Shown: one piece after another, positions 54,926-64,000 of the stretch
Layout: the number at the start of each line of letters is the position of its first letter
Position numbering within the stretch: position 1 is the first letter of the stretch
Assembly: GCA_963677925.2 (NCBI GenBank)
Contig: CAXXYH010000003.1
Coordinates: 1,152,001 to 1,216,000, forward strand
Direction of reading: 5' to 3'
DNA length: 64,000 nt
DNA from: Spirochaetia bacterium
GTDB lineage: Bacteria; Spirochaetota; Spirochaetia; UBA9216
Program-made: the position numbers and the translations under genes
Notes under the pieces: model-generated
Seen by the model: the letters and a program-made list of their open reading frames with translations, nothing else
What the model was told of the DNA's origin: nothing
Databases searched by the model: none

Positions 54926-55069
54926 ATGGAAATTGAACCTGTAGATCCTTCGACACCACCGCCGGAAAAGCCTGCCGAACAGCCGCTCCCGCCTCCGGAA
55001 GAAACAACCCCGGAAGCAGAGGTTATCGAGGACGATAAACTCGGAGAAAACGTAGATCTGCTTTCATAA
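54926..55069 (+). CDS. 47-aa Pro/Glu-rich small protein (not in ORF track)
   Basis: AAGGAGGA RBS then MEIEPVDPSTPPPEKPAEQPLPPPEETTPEAEVIEDDKLGENVDLLS*. Confidence 0.75.
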   Translation: MEIEPVDPSTPPPEKPAEQPLPPPEETTPEAEVIEDDKLGENVDLLS

Positions 55070-55280
55070 TATCAATCAGCATCCTGAGCAGTAATATGAG
55101 TTGGAGATTCTTGAACCACGGATATAGATGGTAGAGATATGTGGCCATACGGATAGACACGGACTGCGTTAAACCACATAGTCTGACTCAAACTAGCAAC
55201 CGTGAAGCGATAGAAGATAGATTAGATTTATAAGACGTCCTTGCCTCCAGAGAGCTTTTTAAGAAAAAAGGAGGCAGGTT

Positions 55281-55696
55281 ATGCTGTTGTATGAAGAATT
55301 ATCAAATAAAATTGTAGGGGCTTTTTTCAGGGTTCATAATGAACTGGGTCCGGGTTTGCTTGAATCATGCTATCATTATTGTTTTGCCTAAAGCAAAACA
55401 ATTAGAAGTTTTCAAAGAAAACTTCACATGCTCTTTACATTGAACTGAAAATCACCGGATTAAATGTTGTCTATAATGCCCCACTTAATGTGCATTACCG
55501 GGGTGAAGTTGTCGGTGAGTTTTTCTCAGACCTTGTGGTTAATAACAATATCATCATTGAAATCAAATCTGTTCAGGCGCTTTCATCTGCGCATGAAGCA
55601 CAGCTAATTAATTATTTACGCATAAGTAAGCTTAAGGTCGGTTATCTTGTTAATTTTCAGGGTTCAAGGGTTGTATTTAAGCGGTTTGTGGTTTGA
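55281..55696 (+). pseudogene. GxxExxY-family protein interrupted by a 50-bp insertion
   Basis: MLLYEELSNKIVGAFFRVHNELGPGLLESCYH, insertion with in-frame TAA, then HALYIELK...DLVV...IIEIKSV...HEAQLINYL...LVNF; deleting 50 bp gives an intact 121-aa ORF. Confidence 0.92.
55377..55426 (+). mobile_element. 50-bp twin-hairpin insertion (copy 1)
   Basis: T-ATTGTTTTGC-ctaaa-GCAAAACAAT-ta-GAAGTTTTC-aaa-GAAAACTTC-A; absent from the paralogous gene at this position. Confidence 0.75.
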
Positions 55697-55745
55697 TAAA
55701 CCGAAGTCAAAGATTAATAGTAATCGTGGTATAATCACGGTATAT

Positions 55746-56396
55746 ATGAAACGTTCAATTAAACATAGTAATATTCCGGAACAAGATTCGATGACTTCAA
55801 AGTTTTATGAAGAGAGGGCATCCATGCTAGCACTTGAGTATGCTGAAGCAGCCCCCGGTTTTACTGAAATCTTTAAAATACTCTTACCTGAAAATTCCGC
55901 AATACTCGATGCAGGCTGCGGGTCCGGGCGTGATCTTGCATCCCTTTCTGAATCCGGTTTTAACGTGACAGGGGCTGACTCTTCATCTGAGATGATAACA
56001 GCAGCAGAGAAGATGTATCCGCAACTCAAAGGCAGACTTAAACAGGCAGTATTACCTCTTCTTACCGGCATAACCGGCAGGTTCGACGGGATTCTATGCT
56101 CCGGAGTTCTTCAGCACATCCAAGATAAATATATACATGAGTGCTTCAGCACATTCAGCAGATTTCTACTACCCGGCGGGATATGTCTTGTAAGTTTTCC
56201 CGTCACCTACCCGGACATCCATCCCCATACAAAGCGTGATATAAATGGAAGGTTATTTATTATCCGCACGGGGGAACATTACAAAGAGTTCGCATCCGTA
56301 TACGGATTGATACTCAAAGAGCAGATTTTCAATCAGGATTCACTCGGGCGACCGGGAACCAGCTGGGGGTTGCATGTTTATCAAAAGAAGGGATAG
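55746..56396 (+). CDS. Class I SAM-dependent methyltransferase
   Basis: ILDAGCGSGRD, FDGILCSGVLQH, LLPGG, DSLGR..W; ATG 55746 or 55791. Confidence 0.9.
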   Translation: MKRSIKHSNIPEQDSMTSKFYEERASMLALEYAEAAPGFTEIFKILLPENSAILDAGCGSGRDLASLSESGFNVTGADSSSEMITAAEKMYPQLKGRLKQAVLPLLTGITGRFDGILCSGVLQHIQDKYIHECFSTFSRFLLPGGICLVSFPVTYPDIHPHTKRDINGRLFIIRTGEHYKEFASVYGLILKEQIFNQDSLGRPGTSWGLHVYQKKG

Positions 56397-56399
56397 AAA

Positions 56400-57500
56400 A
56401 TGAAGTTTGAAGATAGAATCATACTTCCGGAATCAGATCTTTCGATTTCAAAGCTGGTTCAGGCTTTATCCCCTCAATATCTTACAGCAAGCTATAAGCT
56501 GTACTGGCTGCTTGGCATTCTCGACATCATCAAAGACTTTCCATCAGAAAGATCCATAAATATTGAATTTGATGATGTAATTAGAAGAATGATAGCACTC
56601 AGCTGGTACACAATACTTGAATACAGGCTTAATTTCGGAGCATCAGACACACTGGAAAAGGCTGTGCATTATATAGAAAGCAACACTGAACTTAACAGAA
56701 ATAGCTGTAAAAAAGAAATAGTAGAACTTCTTGAAAACTCTGCTGATTCAAAAATAATTGAAATTATACACAGCTTCAGCAAATATGTGCCCTACCGGTT
56801 TCTCACAACCTTCATCCCTAAACTGAACGGCATTCCGGATCATAAAAGAAATTCTGTAATTGAAGAAGCCTCAAAAACCACTCCTGATATTCCTTATGCA
56901 ATTTCAGGTAAAACATGTGTAATGGATCTTAAATGGCTTGAATACCTATATCTGAATAATTCAATAATTAAGGGCTGGGTCCAATACAAACTTGTTTCTT
57001 TTCTTCAGGCTAGAAATCCCAATGTTCCGGCAATAACAGAAAAGTTTGAAGCGCCTCATCAAAGAAACCTTGAAGCAGCACGGAAATACTGGACTGAGTA
57101 TATTTCCTTTAATGATTCAAGAGATATTTTCAGTCATCAGCCAATGAGGGCAACTGAAATAAGCATAGATCATTTTGTACCCTGGAGCTTTGTACTACAT
57201 GACAGAATCTGGAACCTCGCACCCACAAGCCGTGAATTAAACTCCAGTAAAAGCAATCATCTACCTATGTGGGAAAAATATTTCAAGTCATTTGCGGAAC
57301 TGCAGTTCAGGGCATTCAAATGGCATAGTAATAAAACCCCTTCCTCAAAAGTATTGGAAGATTTCATCTTAATAAAACCAGGTATAGCAGGCACTGATAT
57401 AAGCAGAGAATCATTTTTCAGTATTCTGGAAAACACTCTTCAACCGGCTTATCGTATAGCTGCCAATCAAGGTTTTAGTGTTTGGGAAAATAAAGGTTAG
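56400..57500 (+). CDS. HNH endonuclease domain protein
   Basis: SIDHFVPWS..HDRIWNL...NSSKSN; N-terminal TASYKLYWL. Confidence 0.88.
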   Translation: MKFEDRIILPESDLSISKLVQALSPQYLTASYKLYWLLGILDIIKDFPSERSINIEFDDVIRRMIALSWYTILEYRLNFGASDTLEKAVHYIESNTELNRNSCKKEIVELLENSADSKIIEIIHSFSKYVPYRFLTTFIPKLNGIPDHKRNSVIEEASKTTPDIPYAISGKTCVMDLKWLEYLYLNNSIIKGWVQYKLVSFLQARNPNVPAITEKFEAPHQRNLEAARKYWTEYISFNDSRDIFSHQPMRATEISIDHFVPWSFVLHDRIWNLAPTSRELNSSKSNHLPMWEKYFKSFAELQFRAFKWHSNKTPSSKVLEDFILIKPGIAGTDISRESFFSILENTLQPAYRIAANQGFSVWENKG

Positions 57501-57523
57501 CATTATTAAATATATTTATCTTA

Positions 57524-60268
57524 TCATTTACAGATTTCTTTTAATTTACTAACAAGCTTTTCTCTTTCACCACTTTCATTAGTTTTAAATCTTAGTATAG
57601 GTATACCATATATATCTAAAATTCTATCTTTCATTCTATCGCGCTCAGCCTGCCTAGACCCCTTTTTATGAAACTTATACCCATCCACCTCAATAGCGAG
57701 TATAGATTTTTTGCTAATTTTATTGTAAAGCAAGAAATCAAGATGAGTTGAACTATGCATAGCATAATTTTTTTCTTCACTACTTAAGGGCATAGTATCC
57801 CGAATCAACATATTTAATTGCTGATGGCAAATAACATCACAATTTAAATAGTTATTTTCGTTTATTACATCCAAAATTAATGAATACATTAAATTTTCAG
57901 AATCATATTCTGATATTCTTTTTTTATTTTTCAAGTAACTAATACGTTTTTTAGTATATTGCTGATATAAAAGATCAAAAACTGAATAAATAGTACTTTC
58001 ATTCATGCTTAGGTTATTATATTCAATATAGCCTATCAAATCATTTATATTGCTATCTGAAGACAGTTTGTTTCCTGAAGTAACAACACATAGATTCTTT
58101 TTAGCTCTAGAGATCGCAACATTCAATAAGTATGGATTATCAGAAAAATCCGTTACCTTATCATCTACAGAACTGATTATGATAGAATCTTTTTCTCTAC
58201 CCTGGAATTTATGCACAGTCGCAATATCTATCTTAATATCTGAAAAACTTTGTTTTAATGCAGAGACTTGACTTCTGTAAGGGGCTATTATACCTATATC
58301 TTTATTCGGATAATTATTATACGGTAGAATTTCATGCTTAATAACGTCTATTTGTCGTTGATTCATTAAGCCTCTTTGGTGATTTCCAATTACAGTTTTA
58401 TAAACTGAAACCACATTCTCTTCATCATTATCTTTTGTCATTATTAATAACTTTCCATCATAAAATTTTTGATTACAAAAGTTAATTATTTTAGGATGGC
58501 ATCTGTAATGTTCTCGAAGAAGCGTCTCTGGAATATCTGTTATAATTTCACATACAGACTTCAAGAAGCTATTTTCTATAAAATTATAACCAGAGTTTAT
58601 ATTAAAACTATTAAAAATTGAAGAAAGTTTTGATTTTTCACTTTCAGATATTACATTTGGAAGCTGTTTCAAATCGCCAACAATAACAGCATTTTGTGCA
58701 CAGGATAAAGCTAAAGCACCTGTCGCAATATCAACCTGCGAAGCTTCATCCATTATTAGATAATCATATTCTGCACTTGAAGATAAACTACTCCTCGAAG
58801 AGTAGGTGGTACTTAAAACAATTGGGTATTCGTTAATAAAACTCTTTGGATATTTCCATAGGTCCTCCACAGAAAACCTTTTTCTTTGGGATTTCTTTCC
58901 ATACTTTTCAAATAAAAGAGATCTAAGATATTTCATAGACATCTCTGTTAACTCTTTTAATAGTTTTTTTTCATTCCGCATTTCAAGCGCTTTCTTATAT
59001 TTATAGATACTTAAATTAAGTTCATTAATCTTATTTGTATAGAAAAGGAACTGCAGTAGTCTCGAAATTTTATTTATACCATTCTTATAAAATTTCCAAT
59101 TCGCAATTCCATAAATGTAACAACATCTAATTTTAAAATAAAAAGATGGAGATCTACCTTTTTCTGAATACTTTTCACATTTATGTAGTAATTCAAATAA
59201 AATCTGACTATCAAGAGGTATCTTTACCTTTGTTTCATTTAAAATGGTTCCAGATTCTTTTAAAAATCTTTTAAAATGAGAAAATTCTAAATTTACGTCT
59301 GATAACTTTTGACTATCATAAGCAAGTAACTCATTGAGATGAAAAATTTCATTTAGTTCAGTTGAGCTTTTATGAATTTCCTTAATAAGTTCTCCTCCTC
59401 GAGCCGATTCCAAACCCCAGTCTTTTATCACTGTTGGATATTCACCAGTCTGCCTATTTATGAACTGTGTTTTATTATTTGAATTTCCGAGAGGAGCTAC
59501 AAGAAAATCTAAAAGATATTCAGGAGAAGACAGTTTATCTAAGATATTTTCTATAGCAGAGTTATTATTTGATACAACTTGTACTGTTTTTTCTGAAATT
59601 AGTAGGTTTGCTATTATATTTAAAATCGTTTGTGTTTTTCCAGTACCAGGTGGTCCTTGAATCACACTTATCTGAGAAGATAACGCATTTGTTACTGCTT
59701 TAAATTGACTAGCATTACACCCAAAAGGGAAAATGGGTATATTAAATTTTAGTTTTTTTATTAAAAATTTTTCCGGATTTAAATAAATATTTAATACTTT
59801 GTTTTTTTCTATTGTCTTTATTTTTTCATAATGCTTGGAAAGAATTTTTGTGCCATCTTCAGCTCTAAGACTTACTAAATCTGATATTCTAGTAAGATAA
59901 TTAAGTACACAACTTTGCTTTTCATCATTTAAAATATTTTTAATTATTGAAATATCTTCACCATGGAAATCTACAAAATGCTTATTCTTAAAATAAATAT
60001 GATAATAGGAGAACTGCTTTCCATCGTTAAAGACATACACTGCTTCAATATCTTTAAGTTCCTTACCAAAGTGTTTAAATTGGTAGTTATCTGGATTTAA
60101 AATAATAGGATTCCTAAGCCAATTCACATGTTCTGCTCTATATGTATAAGCTTTACCCTCCTTAAATTTTATTATAAATTTTGATTTTTCTGGAAGATAA
60201 TTACAAAATAAGACTTCTGGTGTAACTATTCTTCCCTTTGCTATAATCATATTTTGTCTTAAATCCAT
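57524..60268 (-). CDS. SF1 (DNA2/Upf1-like) helicase with C-terminal DUF2726/Vsr-like nuclease domain
   Basis: QGPPGTGKT, DEASQ, VGDLKQL, EHYRCHP, HKFQGRE, NVAISRAK; HLDF...IEVDG..FH...RDRMKD. Confidence 0.9.
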   Translation of the reverse strand: MDLRQNMIIAKGRIVTPEVLFCNYLPEKSKFIIKFKEGKAYTYRAEHVNWLRNPIILNPDNYQFKHFGKELKDIEAVYVFNDGKQFSYYHIYFKNKHFVDFHGEDISIIKNILNDEKQSCVLNYLTRISDLVSLRAEDGTKILSKHYEKIKTIEKNKVLNIYLNPEKFLIKKLKFNIPIFPFGCNASQFKAVTNALSSQISVIQGPPGTGKTQTILNIIANLLISEKTVQVVSNNNSAIENILDKLSSPEYLLDFLVAPLGNSNNKTQFINRQTGEYPTVIKDWGLESARGGELIKEIHKSSTELNEIFHLNELLAYDSQKLSDVNLEFSHFKRFLKESGTILNETKVKIPLDSQILFELLHKCEKYSEKGRSPSFYFKIRCCYIYGIANWKFYKNGINKISRLLQFLFYTNKINELNLSIYKYKKALEMRNEKKLLKELTEMSMKYLRSLLFEKYGKKSQRKRFSVEDLWKYPKSFINEYPIVLSTTYSSRSSLSSSAEYDYLIMDEASQVDIATGALALSCAQNAVIVGDLKQLPNVISESEKSKLSSIFNSFNINSGYNFIENSFLKSVCEIITDIPETLLREHYRCHPKIINFCNQKFYDGKLLIMTKDNDEENVVSVYKTVIGNHQRGLMNQRQIDVIKHEILPYNNYPNKDIGIIAPYRSQVSALKQSFSDIKIDIATVHKFQGREKDSIIISSVDDKVTDFSDNPYLLNVAISRAKKNLCVVTSGNKLSSDSNINDLIGYIEYNNLSMNESTIYSVFDLLYQQYTKKRISYLKNKKRISEYDSENLMYSLILDVINENNYLNCDVICHQQLNMLIRDTMPLSSEEKNYAMHSSTHLDFLLYNKISKKSILAIEVDGYKFHKKGSRQAERDRMKDRILDIYGIPILRFKTNESGEREKLVSKLKEICK

Positions 60269-60278
60269 CGTACTTCTT

Positions 60279-63200
60279 CTAACCAACACCTAATTTGACA
60301 GAATCTTTCCAAAGCACAGGCGGAAGTGGATGCTCTAAGCGCCAGGTTATGCTCATCGGTTGACTACCGTAATAGGAATCGAAATTTACTAACCCTAGAT
60401 TAATAAACCCCATAGCTCGACCATATTCATCCTCAGATTGCTCTCGAACAAAAAGGACTATCTTTTTCCCATTTTTACTTTGTTCAATATATGATAAGCC
60501 CTTGCCCTTTTCAGGCCTAGCGGAGTTCTGAGTCTGCCAATGAAATAGAACATCATTGATTGCGTAATCATGGTACAGAGTTGTAGGTGAAAATTTCTTC
60601 TCTGTCTTTTGCAAAGTTACAAAAAGCAGCTCGCAATTAAGAGATTTAATTTCAACAGAACCTTCTCGACTGCTTGATTTTTTACTGAAAGAATTTTCAC
60701 CAAAAGCCGCAAGAATTTCATCTCTTGTATACCTTGAATGGAGTTTTATTGCTATTGGAAATCCCAGATCAAGAGGCATTTCATAAACTTCAAGTTTATC
60801 CAGAATATTATCTATTACATCTACACATTCGTTTCGAAGGAGCTCATCTCTTCTTATAGCTGATAGCGATTCCTTTAAATTTCTCATTCCAATAAGTGCT
60901 CCAGGTTTCTGCCAAAAATCATAATGGACCATCATAGCCATTTGATTCTCTTCTTCTGATGATGTATCTCAGTGCCCAGTCATGAAAAAATCTTTGAGAA
61001 AAAGGAGGTATGAAACCGAGGTGCTTTGTAATAACCTTTTAGACAATCCTTTAAATATGGCTTGTTCAATTTCACGATCTAAGAGATCAGAAGAAAGTCC
61101 TGCTTCAATACAAAGCCTATTCCAACCCCCTCCACCATCAATTTTGATTTTATAAATATCTTCTATGGAAACTTGAGGATTGTGTATGAGAAAATTTCGA
61201 AGTGATAATTCAACTGAAGAATGTTGATTATATACCTGTATCCAAGAAATCAGCTTGTTACGATTTACAATCGCATTTTTTATATTCCGAAGAATGATTT
61301 CTTTAGCCTGTTTTTGTAACAATATTGAACATCCCAACGGTAGATGGGGAAAATTGTCTTCAATTTCATCAGTTATTGAATAATGTGATTTCCCAACAAG
61401 TGCCCGGAATTTTTGTGAAAAATCATATTCAGCATGAGCATTCCCAACAAAATCAAGAACGGTTAATGAATCCTTTCCTTGTGATAAACGCAAACCTCTA
61501 CCTAATTGTTGAAGAAATATTGTAAGACTTTCAGTTGGTCGCAAAAACAATACGGTGTCTATCTCTGGAATATCTACTCCTTCATTAAAAATATCTACGA
61601 CACAGAGAATATTTATTTCTCCCTTTGCCAACTGATCACGAAGCCTCACCCTTTCATCAGAATTATTACTTGTTAGTACGGAAGCTCTTATACCCTTCAA
61701 CAAGAATTTTTCAGCCATATATTTTGCATGTTCTTGTGTAACACAAAAGGCTAATGCTTTGATTCGATTAATATCATCAATTAAATCAAACATTGTTCTT
61801 ATTATATGACCAACTCGTTGATCATTAGCCATATAAATCCCCGTTAACTCCGAAGGCAGATAACGTCCCTTTACCCACGCCACATTGGACAAATCCACAG
61901 TATCATCAATTCCGAAATACTGAAAAGGACATAAATACCCATGATTGATAGCTTCTGGTAAACGAAGCTCAGCAGCAATTACATTACAGAAATCTGACCT
62001 TATATCAGTGCCATCATTTCGTTCAGGCGTTGCTGTTAAACCAAGTAAAATTTTGGGCTTAAAGAAATTGATAATATTACGATAGCTATCAGCTGCAATA
62101 TGATGAACCTCATCTACAATTATATAATCATAAAAATCAGGCTCAATTTCTAAGTGATCAATTTTACTACTCAACATTTGTACGGAGACAAATAAATGAC
62201 GATAATGCTCTGGTTTAGAATTTCCGACCCAGAGCTCACCAAATTGATGTGAACGCAGTATCATCTGAAAAGTAAAAAGGGATTGTCTTAGGATTTCCTC
62301 TCTGTGCGCTATAAATAATAATTTGGTTGCTGGATTTTCTTTATATATAGATCTGAAATCGAAAGCTGAAATAACGGTTTTGCCAGTACCAGTGGCAGCA
62401 ACTACCAAATTTCTGTATCTGTTGTGAACTGTTCTTTCAACCAATAATCTCTGTAAAATTTCTTTCTGATAAGCATGTGGTTCAATATCAAAAAAATGCT
62501 GTTGGTTCTCAAAGTCATTATTAGATTTTTTTTCATTTTTAAGCGCCTTCATTAGACGCTCTTTATCATTTATATCTTTTACATTGTAAATCTCAAAATC
62601 GCTTGAAGCCCAATAAGTTTCAAAAGTGGATTTGAATTTTTCAATTATGTGAGGAATTTCCTGGGTTGTTATCTTTAAATTCCATTCTAGCCCACTTGTT
62701 AAGGCTGCATGAGAAAGATTAGACGAACCAATATAACCAGTATGATAACCTGACTTCCTTCGAAATAGATAAGCTTTTGCATGCAAACGCTCTCTTTCTG
62801 TATTATAACTTAAGCGTATTTCTGTATTAGGTAATGCTGATAAAAAATCGACAGCTTTCTGGTCAGTTGCCCCCATATACGAAGTGGTAATAATTTTTAA
62901 TTTTGTTCCTTTACTAGTTGCCTCTTTAAGAGTATCAATAAATATTCGGATTCCTGTCCATTTAATAAAAGATACCAACCACCAAATTTCATCCGAAGAT
63001 AAAATTTCCCGTCTTAGCTCTGATTCTAAAGATAATCCAACATTACTACCAGTAAATAACTCGCTTTGAACTAAACCTGTCTTGGGTGTTATCTTTTCAA
63101 GATATTTTTTAAAATCTGCTGCTATCGGATTTTTAATTTCTAATAAACCTGAAAGTATATCGCCAGTAGTCACTAAAATATTTTCTGATATTTCAACATT

Positions 63201-63449
63201 TTTCAAATAGTCAGAAAGCCATCTTATTATCGAATTTGATAATTCAAGTTGATTCAAGAGTCTGTCATCGTTATTTGGAAATAATTCAAGCGCAGTATGG
63301 ATAACTTTTGATAAAAATCTGGTTAAATATTCAGAGGCTTCCGCACGATCAAGAACTTTTTTTTCAATATAATATTGCTCATTGCTATTATTTAAACGTT
63401 CTTGAAGTAATTCCGTAATTAGCTTTTCATAGATACCTGATTTTAACAA
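60279..63449 (-). pseudogene. PLD nuclease-SF2 helicase-DUF3427 protein (SauUSI-like type IV restriction enzyme) with one in-frame TGA
   Basis: LHAKAY...GSSNLS, ATGTGKT, DEVHH, LTATPER, QQLGRGLR; ORFs 60969-63449 and 60279-60941 share a frame, joined by TGA-DTSSEEENQ; C-part has YHDYAI...FHWQTQN. Confidence 0.88.
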
Positions 63450-63550
63450 TTTTTGATCCTTTATAAATTACTTCTAAAACATTATCGATTGTTCTATTTT
63501 ATCTTTAAATTCGAGTGGAATACAGAAAAAGATATAATTTTATTATATTT

Positions 63551-63919
63551 TCACACTACAAACCGTTTCCACACAGCCTTTTCACCCATAAAATTAACCA
63601 GATAACCCAGCCTGCAGCCTGAAATATGCAGATAATTAAGCAGTTGTGCTTCATGAATTGAAGCAAGCGATTTCACTGCCTTTATTTCTATTAAAATCTT
63701 ATTTTCAACAACCAAATCTGCATAATACTCACCAACCTGATGCCCCTGTAACTGACATTAAACGGAGCATTGTAACAAACCGATAGCCCCTGGGATTTTA
63801 GTTCAAAGTACAATGCATTATGGTAACAGCTTTCAAGCAGCCCCGGCCCCAGTTCATTGGGCACACTTATACATGCACCCACAATTTTATTTGATAATTC
63901 TTTTATAGAGTTTCTTCAC
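63551..63919 (-). pseudogene. GxxExxY-family protein, frameshifted
   Basis: ELSNKIVGA..NELGPGLLESCYHNAL...ADLVVENKILIEIKAV...HEAQLLNYL...KRFVV*; +1 at the A-run 63901-63904 and -1 at the G-run 63743-63746. Confidence 0.9.
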
Positions 63920-63969
63920 TGACAGTTTTCACCGAAAACTGTCAAATCTTTTGTCTTTGACAAAAGATT
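63920..63969 (-). mobile_element. 50-bp twin-hairpin insertion (copy 2)
   Basis: Minus strand AATCTTTTGTC-aaa-GACAAAAGATT-TGACAGTTTTC-ggt-GAAAACTGTCA between GAGG RBS and start of GxxExxY copy 2. Confidence 0.75.
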
Positions 63970-64000
63970 CAGCCTCACTGTTTTTGTTTAAACAGGCAGG

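Follow-up and report, generated by a model that had tools for sequence, protein, structure and literature searches.

A 50-bp twin-hairpin insert in a spirochete GxxExxY gene and the low-copy repeat family to which it belongs

The Interrupted Gene and Its Insert

The window considered here is a stretch of 64,000 nucleotides from a Spirochaetia bacterium (GenBank assembly GCA_963677925.2, contig CAXXYH010000003.1), corresponding to C3:1152001–1216000 of a 5.04-Mb genome, G000, that is assembled in 4 contigs and is 99.6% complete. It contains g1, a GxxExxY gene that is interrupted at 55377–55426 (plus strand) by an insert of exactly 50 bp made up of two adjoining perfect hairpins. The gene is preceded on the same strand by a 5′ leader (55100–55280) that has no Rfam match and ends in a hairpin sequestering the Shine–Dalgarno (SD) sequence (CCTTGCCTCC...GGAGGCAGG); the ATG is at 55281. 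Codons 1–32 (MLLYEELSNKIVGAFFRVHNELGPGLLESCYH; 55281–55376, plus strand) carry the GxxExxY motif and match positions 1–27 of the TIGR04256 profile (E 7e-7). Codons 33–121 and the stop (55427–55696, plus strand) are read in frame +2 with respect to the 5′ part, match profile positions 29–116 (E 1.1e-27), and contain a D...E-x-K core (SDLVV...EIK). The host gene belongs to the family described by TIGR04256 (NCBIfam ‘GxxExxY protein’, PD-(D/E)xK superfamily), where the cut-off of 35 bits is passed by the 3′ part with 96.7 bits; the 5′ part scores 29.6 bits, and for the intact paralogs the values are 138.5 bits (g3) and 142.2 bits (g4).

Within g1 the insert follows TGC TAT CAT and reads T, ATTGTTTTGC-CTAAA-GCAAAACAAT, TA, GAAGTTTTC-AAA-GAAAACTTC, A, after which the gene continues with CAT GCT. 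Hairpin 1 (55378–55402) has a 10-bp stem in which 55378–55387 pairs with 55393–55402 around a 5-nt loop, and hairpin 2 (55405–55425) has a 9-bp stem in which 55405–55413 pairs with 55417–55425 around a 3-nt loop; the two hairpins differ from one another. As it stands, the g1 frame enters the insert and ends at a TAA, the fifth codon inside it, for a total of 36 codons. An original prediction, made by a model from the letters of the window, held that excision of the 50 bp would restore an open reading frame (ORF), and this is what happens when 55377–55426 is cut out by script: a 366-nt ORF including the stop results, and the product, 121 residues long, aligns with four G000 paralogs along its entire length. 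These are g2 (63551–63916 of the window, minus strand; C3:1215551–1215916) and the intact genes g3 (C3:1535279–1535629), g4 (C3:2093427–2093786), and g5 (C4:384895–385257). The prediction had also named g2 as a colinear paralog. The alignment stands, but g2 is no intact ORF: it has a TGA just after a twin hairpin of its own, a 1-nt deletion near codon 58, and further stops on read-through, all of which make it a pseudogene.

Folded as single-stranded DNA, the plus strand of the insert reaches −16.0 kcal/mol as compared with −5.4 ± 1.75 kcal/mol in 200 shuffles, none of which folds as well (z −6.05), and the predicted perfect stems of 10 and 9 bp are there in the sequence. The sequence is AT-rich and of low complexity, as chance palindromes or an assembly artifact would lead one to expect. 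Against this explanation, z values across the folded twin hairpins run from −5.5 to −6.7 and covariance-model E values go down to 1e-11. A structural scan for perfect stems of at least 8 bp with loops of 3–7 nt and a gap of at most 4 nt found 14 twin-hairpin loci in G000 versus 0, 0, 0, 0, and 1 in five local shuffles made within 100-nt blocks. In addition, a contig of 10,545 nt from a second assembly (run X1, which may be the window's own source) spans 55283–56000 with zero differences, and homologous copies of the twin hairpin stand in several other assemblies. Chance or artifact is hardly credible as an account of the insert.

The Empty Site and the Age of the Insertion

The sister species G001, of the same genus, has a syntenic ortholog of g1 in which the matching stretch is 354 nt as compared with 404 nt in the query, exactly 50 fewer. 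Its empty site reads TAT CAT/AAT GCA, with the slash marking the point of insertion, and a contig of a further sequencing run (X2) joins 55376 to 55428 without the insert, which settles the search for an empty site that the original prediction had proposed. Comparing the empty CAT/AAT of G001 with a filled CAT/50 nt/AAT in G006, a genome of another genus, indicates no target duplication.

The 3′ part of g1 is 92.6% identical in nucleotides to the G001 ortholog, with a dN/dS (nonsynonymous to synonymous substitution) ratio of 0.19 (dS 0.22, dN 0.042). In the protein tree, the branch leading to g1 is shorter than that of the ortholog (0.022 versus 0.068). There is no sign of decay in g1, and the insertion is either very recent or harmless. 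We read g1 as a probable very young pseudogene, encoding a 36-residue stub and leaving the catalytic two-thirds of the protein without a native start.

The G001 ortholog (C5:109051–109642) is itself a mosaic. Its leader and 5′ twin hairpin are 81% identical to g2 and 61% to g1, and the coding part shows the reverse, with 92% identity to g1 and 70% to g2, indicating that paralogous GxxExxY modules recombine near the start codon. Over the 40 nt to the right of the g1 insert, identity to the ortholog falls to 78% versus 92–97% elsewhere. A gene-conversion tract around the insert was considered and set aside: the dip is on the right side only, and it is ambiguous because the same stretch also varies across the family. 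An empty site was also sought for an intergenic copy (G006:C33); the neighboring gene is conserved in six other genomes, the spacer could not be aligned among them, and G004 has a single hairpin there.

A Low-Copy Family of Twin Hairpins

Judged by sequence and fold, the insert is one copy of a low-copy, structure-defined, noncoding family of ~50-nt double palindromes. Hairpin 1 of the family has 10–11 bp with a free top and a foot that is mostly ATTG...CAAT; a spacer of 0–3 nt leads to hairpin 2, which has a sequence-conserved stem, GAAGTTTTC-NNN-GAAAACTTC. A second member lies in the window at 63920–63969 (minus strand), is also exactly 50 bp long (AATCTTTTGTC AAA GACAAAAGATT, then TGACAGTTTTC GGT GAAAACTGTCA), folds with a z of −5.69, and scores 70.1 bits with the covariance model. 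It is directly 5′ of g2, between the SD hairpin and the coding region, in the same orientation relative to the gene as the g1 insert; the original prediction had placed a related 50-bp copy at a different site of this paralog. The compensatory changes and the terminal TCA that it had named are likewise real in both copies, which differ by three compensatory pair changes in stem 1 and one paired insertion in stem 2. A third copy in G000 (C3:1535643–1535695) lies upstream of g3 and is 90.6% identical to the g2 copy. The flanks of these two copies are homologous, so they share one origin and the G000 copies cannot count as three separate insertions.

A covariance model, R1, was built from eight copies, and its best match is the g1 insert (73.2 bits, E 1.4e-11). 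Within the taxonomic family, R1 matches 15 distinct places spread over 6 of the 11 genomes, so the scan suggested at the outset does turn up further copies; an order-level search covers the same 11 genomes. Across the class, 6 of 151 genomes have matches, five in the spirochete family and one, weak, outside it. Copies per genome range from 1 to 7, with three in G000, one in G001, and up to seven in G006. A DNA search of 41 relatives recovered an 88%-identical 50-nt copy in an intergenic spacer of G006, along with further copies in G006 and G007. The genomes with strong copies are G000, G001, G006, and G007.

Covariation supports the structure. Among 19 copies, 97.4% of pair cells are standard versus 75.4 ± 1.4% after shuffling and 31–64% when partners are slid, in an alignment that was fitted to the model and leans toward structure. 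Both sides have changed in 12 of the 19 pairs overall and in 9 of the 10 pairs of helix 1, and 6 of the 9 pairs in helix 2 are invariant. With stems that covary and related copies at unrelated loci, the proposed structure-defined repeat is supported.

The proposed preference for GxxExxY loci is strongly supported as well: GxxExxY genes account for 7 of the 15 places, with the copies in or at the gene at three recurrent sites. Four others are directly after tRNA genes, two of them in 16S–23S spacers of G007, and the remaining four are in other intergenic DNA or at contig ends. Twin hairpins occupy the orthologous place after one tRNA in G000, G006, and G007 with differing sequences. There are also G000 twin hairpins that are unrelated in sequence, located outside the window at C4:1260729, C4:2169615, C4:2197603, C3:411341, and C4:400293. 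Three identical ones are in rRNA-operon spacers and others adjoin tRNA genes, one of them at the same tRNA where G006 and G007 hold family members.

The same architecture extends to another phylum. A Cloacimonadaceae metagenome-assembled genome (MAG) has nine rows at E up to 0.01, one of them directly after a tRNA, with an identical hairpin-2 stem and a similar hairpin 1 (ATTTGC/GCAAAT). Such a distribution may point to horizontal spread or to a host factor that the two phyla have in common; the GxxExxY genes of this MAG are not interrupted by hairpins. A scan of a genome collection with hairpin 2 alone gave 79 loci, mostly single hairpins in coding regions (E-V-F-x-E-N-F) or terminators; a perfect neighboring hairpin was found by script at 9 of the 79, with a few more by eye. 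No loci were found when viral contigs were scanned with hairpin 2 or when metagenomes were scanned with the exact g1-type stems, and a looser metagenome pattern (ATTG...CAAT plus hairpin 2) gave one locus that was set aside uninspected. In GC-rich Jannaschia genomes, the AT-rich GAAGTTTTC-NNN-GAAAACTTC hairpin is lined up in rows with one or two further perfect hairpins of a GAAG...CTTC type, and an Anaerolineae MAG has a hairpin pair similar to the Jannaschia rows.

Recurrent Sites in GxxExxY Genes

Among 33 GxxExxY loci examined in the 11 genomes, 28 are uninterrupted and three have internal twin hairpins (g1, G006:C39, and G006:C18a). Three sites of insertion recur: site A, between the SD sequence and the start; site B, after ...ESCYH; and site C, after ...VGE. 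Site A is occupied in g2, g3, the G001 ortholog, G006:C39, and G006:C18a. The frame that begins at a TTG, 8 nt beyond GAGG, stays open across both hairpins and on into the gene in g3 and in the G001 ortholog, and the loops of these two copies differ synonymously or conservatively. At this site, it seems that the host has accommodated the insert instead of removing it.

The gene at G006:C39, from the other genus, carries three twin-hairpin inserts, one each at sites A, B, and C. Its site-B copy is 50 nt long and at the exact position of the g1 insert (TAT CAT/.../AAT GCT). Its site-C insert, 55 nt with other stems, lies between VGE and FYADL. The frame is open end to end with the three inserts removed, and the gene is without an in-frame start. 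Between the two site-B copies, stem bases are identical at 38 of 38 positions and unpaired bases differ at 9 of 12; the flanking coding sequences are 74% and 66% identical. The site-C element recurs at the same position in G006:C18a, a paralog from another clade, and is also present in the remnant C18b. The C18a element is 85.5% identical to that of G006:C39, with flanking coding identity of 61–64% and only 6 nt identical next to the site, and the foot of the element changes between them from ATTG/CAAT to ACAG/CTGT, which is compensatory.

In a GxxExxY tree of 30 rows, from which g2, G006:C18a, and three partial loci were left out, g1 and G006:C39 are not sisters. Because uninterrupted genes branch between them, an ancestral insert would need several precise losses. 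Decay is evident in other insert-bearing genes: g2 and G006:C18a have stops or frameshifts, and C18b is a remnant.

Two further observations touch these sites. In G016:C439, from another Spirochaetia family, a GxxExxY gene is split (at ~424–519), one codon upstream of site B, by an unrelated, AT-rich insert of 88 nt; the insert has two stems, of 6 and 11 bp, with large loops, and both gene halves are open. In nine other regions of the class with shortened GxxExxY matches there are no hairpins at the break. A partial copy, G007:C1:24789–24959, begins exactly at site C (FFADL...), with no hairpin seen at the break, and is nearly identical to the C-terminal part of its intact neighbor, G007:C1:22718–23062.

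The same-site copies bear on the view that twin hairpins are functional RNA or DNA structures, for processing, stability, or protein binding, that move between GxxExxY paralogs only by recombination or conversion. The mosaic in G001 indicates that these modules do recombine, the orthologous post-tRNA place is filled in three genomes with different sequences, and the 78% dip beside the g1 insert would fit. Ordinary conversion, however, would need more similar flanks than the same-site copies have (6 nt identical at site C; 61–66% coding identity), and copies are also found in unrelated intergenic DNA and in another phylum. A function in place is hard to see inside a coding sequence, given that the structure destroys the product. 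We consider this view possible, if unlikely, and place it first among the alternatives.

Leaders and Neighboring Genes

A structured leader of ~150 nt, at ~130 nt upstream of the start codon, is common to nearly all GxxExxY genes of the spirochete family. Its order is cctcc...ttttcattgtac; gTCAAGGnCAAGGCAAG; a variable perfect apical hairpin; CCTTGAc...gaaaagcgg; the SD-sequestering hairpin; and ATG. The g2 leader extends past the window end, with its SD-sequestering hairpin (GCCTGCCTGTTT...AAACAGTGAGGC) at 63970–64000 (minus strand) and a homologous stretch upstream of g3 and the G001 ortholog. The conserved leader could be an RNA that regulates the GxxExxY module in cis or takes part in its mobility. 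Rfam searches (E up to 1 and up to 0.1) recovered rRNA and tRNA only, with no match at either twin hairpin of the window or in the leaders of GxxExxY genes.

A small proline-rich ORF (54926–55069, plus strand; 47 amino acids from an inner ATG) lies just upstream of the g1 leader, with 84% DNA identity in the sister genome and no Pfam match. The g1 and g2 genes are convergent and bracket ~8 kb of defense-like genes (55697–63550): an S-adenosylmethionine (SAM) methyltransferase, an HNH_4 endonuclease, an SF1 helicase with DUF2726, a DUF3427 protein, and a PLD-nuclease/ResIII helicase. From the g1 stop to the point where synteny resumes is ~2.3 kb in the sister genome versus ~10 kb in the window genome.

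Possible Tolerance by Removal or Skipping

Another possibility is that the insert is removed from the message or skipped by the ribosome, with interrupted GxxExxY genes remaining functional and the elements resembling tiny introns. The g1 gene is exactly 50 nt longer than its empty counterpart and has CAT on both sides of the insert, both halves are open and conserved in g1, in G006:C39 with its three inserts, and in G016:C439, and g1 shows no relaxed constraint. The stems are also far more conserved than the host coding sequence. There is a precedent in the bypass cassette of T4 gene 60, likewise of 50 nt, which according to a preprint (bioRxiv 10.1101/2022.08.31.505936) is itself carried by a mobile element with a single site of re-insertion; the same preprint gives a stop or rare codon directly after take-off as a feature of that bypass.

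The details argue the other way. Matched take-off and landing codons occur in G000 only (CAT...CAT, versus CAT...AAT in G006), and landing on the second CAT of g1 costs one residue of the conserved YxxAL spacing. The codon after take-off is TAT in G000 and GAT in G006, neither a stop nor rare, and the first stops come 5 and 14 codons on. No frame is open through the insert in both the g1 and G006 copies. A search for the RtcB ligase (PF01139) was positive in none of 5 carrier genomes versus 10 of 14 controls, other ligases having not been searched. Moreover, the G006:C39 gene has no in-frame start, and other insert-bearing copies are decaying. Removal or skipping is accordingly doubtful, ranking below recombination among the alternatives, and a bypass of the T4 gene 60 type in particular fits the g1 insert poorly. 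Read-through by frameshifting was rejected as a candidate: the +1 frame is open in the g1 insert, but the G006 copy has a TAG.

A bolder version would make the twin hairpins tiny homing inserts with three fixed GxxExxY sites, tolerated through removal from the message or ribosome hopping, and would make the GxxExxY PD-(D/E)xK nuclease the hairpin-cutting enzyme, acting on its own gene or mRNA and on the trailers of tRNA and rRNA precursors. This combination has an outside chance of being correct. If true, it would provide a function for a large orphan nuclease family and a bacterial chromosomal counterpart of the T4 gene 60 gap or of archaeal protein-spliced introns.

Proposed Mobility of the Element

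The original prediction looked to HUH transposases, suggesting that a Y1 enzyme of the IS200/IS605 or RAYT (REP-associated tyrosine transposase; REP, repetitive extragenic palindromic) kind moves the element in trans without target duplication. Y1 enzymes act on hairpins in single-stranded DNA, the element is made of hairpins, and there is no target duplication at site B. The Pfam Y1_Tnp domain (PF01797), however, has no matches in G000 in a search that was positive in 6 of 14 control genomes. It occurs in 3 of the 11 family genomes (G002, G004, and G005) and in none of the four with strong copies. The positive genomes G002 and G004 have no R1 match and G005 has one weak match, and the flanks of insertion sequence (IS) copies in the Y1_Tnp genomes have no related hairpins. 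The ends of IS608-type elements are alike, whereas the two hairpins here are unlike each other, and no tetranucleotide is common to the left flanks of the copies. On these results, the HUH mechanism is largely ruled out for the strong-copy genomes; as a general account it is very improbable and comes after removal or skipping in the order of alternatives.

The reading that we favor, on balance, is that the twin hairpin is a nonautonomous element acting at the DNA level that inserts in a site- or structure-directed way and has probably just knocked out g1. The g1 copy would have come into site B once the sister species had diverged. Its insertion would have shifted the frame and brought in a TAA five codons on, leaving the predicted 36-residue stub and inactivating the gene by a change in DNA. 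Spread would be by a homing-like process directed to site or structure, and the stems would stay perfect either through selection acting on the folded strand or through the way in which the element is copied.

Several points weigh against this reading. The near-complete G000 genome contains no donor copy of the g1 subtype elsewhere, no enzyme was found, and the three sites share no target motif. With no target duplication and 1–7 copies per genome, the word “mobile” rests on comparative evidence, and the lean of the covariation alignment toward structure must be kept in mind. Three interrupted genes (g1, G006:C39, and G016:C439) are otherwise free of lesions, which fits a very recent insertion and fits equally well genes that still work by removing or skipping the insert. 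The elements are also more conserved than their host genes, which might reflect a role where they stand and not a recent spread.

Bacteria commonly carry small hairpin repeats. Should the spread of this family prove truly site directed, it would point to an insertion mechanism not yet known; should the interrupted genes still function, they would be a new instance of recoding or of the removal of a mini-intron. In either case, the family provides a concrete handle on what GxxExxY proteins do. PMC3424549 gives the function of PDDEXK_3 as unknown. If neither holds, g1 is still a clean example of a young gene knockout by a structured mini-insert.

Comparison with Known Systems

A general survey of bacterial stem-loop repeat families (PMC2267715) covers 92 families. 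The twin-hairpin family is apparently undescribed, a judgment made without a comparison to those 92. Full-text literature searches found nothing on hairpin inserts in GxxExxY genes. In the literature searched, the following features were not described together: two different perfect hairpins per unit, no cognate HUH transposase, very low copy number, occurrence in two phyla, and recurrent insertion at identical nucleotide positions in a single family of small nuclease genes. The original expectation of an element outside known families is supported in that Rfam gives no match; the family also does not have the defining features of REP/RAYT systems, palindrome-associated transposable elements (PATEs), or miniature inverted-repeat transposable elements (MITEs).

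The REP, BIME (bacterial interspersed mosaic element), and REPIN–RAYT systems are close in form, being short noncoding hairpin repeats at the ends of genes, tRNAs, and operons with structure kept more than sequence. The carriers of twin hairpins, in contrast, have no Y1/RAYT gene and hold 1–7 copies per genome rather than tens to hundreds. The unit is two different self-complementary hairpins side by side; REPs are arranged as two inverted copies that form one long hairpin. Twin hairpins are also found inside coding sequence at fixed sites, with nearly half of their places in or at GxxExxY genes, instead of being mostly extragenic.

The IS200/IS605 PATEs and classical MITEs are likewise small and nonautonomous, and PATEs also insert without target duplication. 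The twin hairpin differs in having no inverted repeats between its ends (ATTG.../...CTTCA are not complementary), no target duplication, no cognate transposase, and no target tetranucleotide shared by the left flanks. The 3′ ends of the copies are alike (CTTCA, TGTCA, GTACA), and the left flanks differ (...TCAT, ...GCTG, ...GGGG, or tRNA 3′ ends).

The gap of T4 gene 60 and the mitochondrial ‘byp’ elements of Magnusiomyces share with g1 a structured insert of ~50 nt that breaks the frame, and the g1 gap is flanked by identical CAT codons. In behavior, the family resembles homing inserts and the mobile T4 cassette. Features that the twin hairpin does not share are a stop or hungry codon at take-off and an accompanying homing-endonuclease gene, and the G006 copy has no matched codons.

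Rickettsia palindromic elements (RPEs) are 100–150 bp long and are tolerated in frame inside protein-coding genes. The site-A copies of g3 and the G001 ortholog are similar in that their frame is open, so that they probably form a translated extension of the N terminus; the g1 copy, by contrast, is 50 nt long, shifts the frame, and brings a stop. Closest in form are the double-hairpin elements (DHEs) of fungal mitochondrial DNA, defined as two adjacent short hairpins that are dispersed, with some located within genes. The anatomy is the same, in form only: DHEs are organellar and eukaryotic and have no sequence relation to the family described here, whereas twin hairpins occur in free-living bacteria of two phyla and prefer one nuclease gene family.

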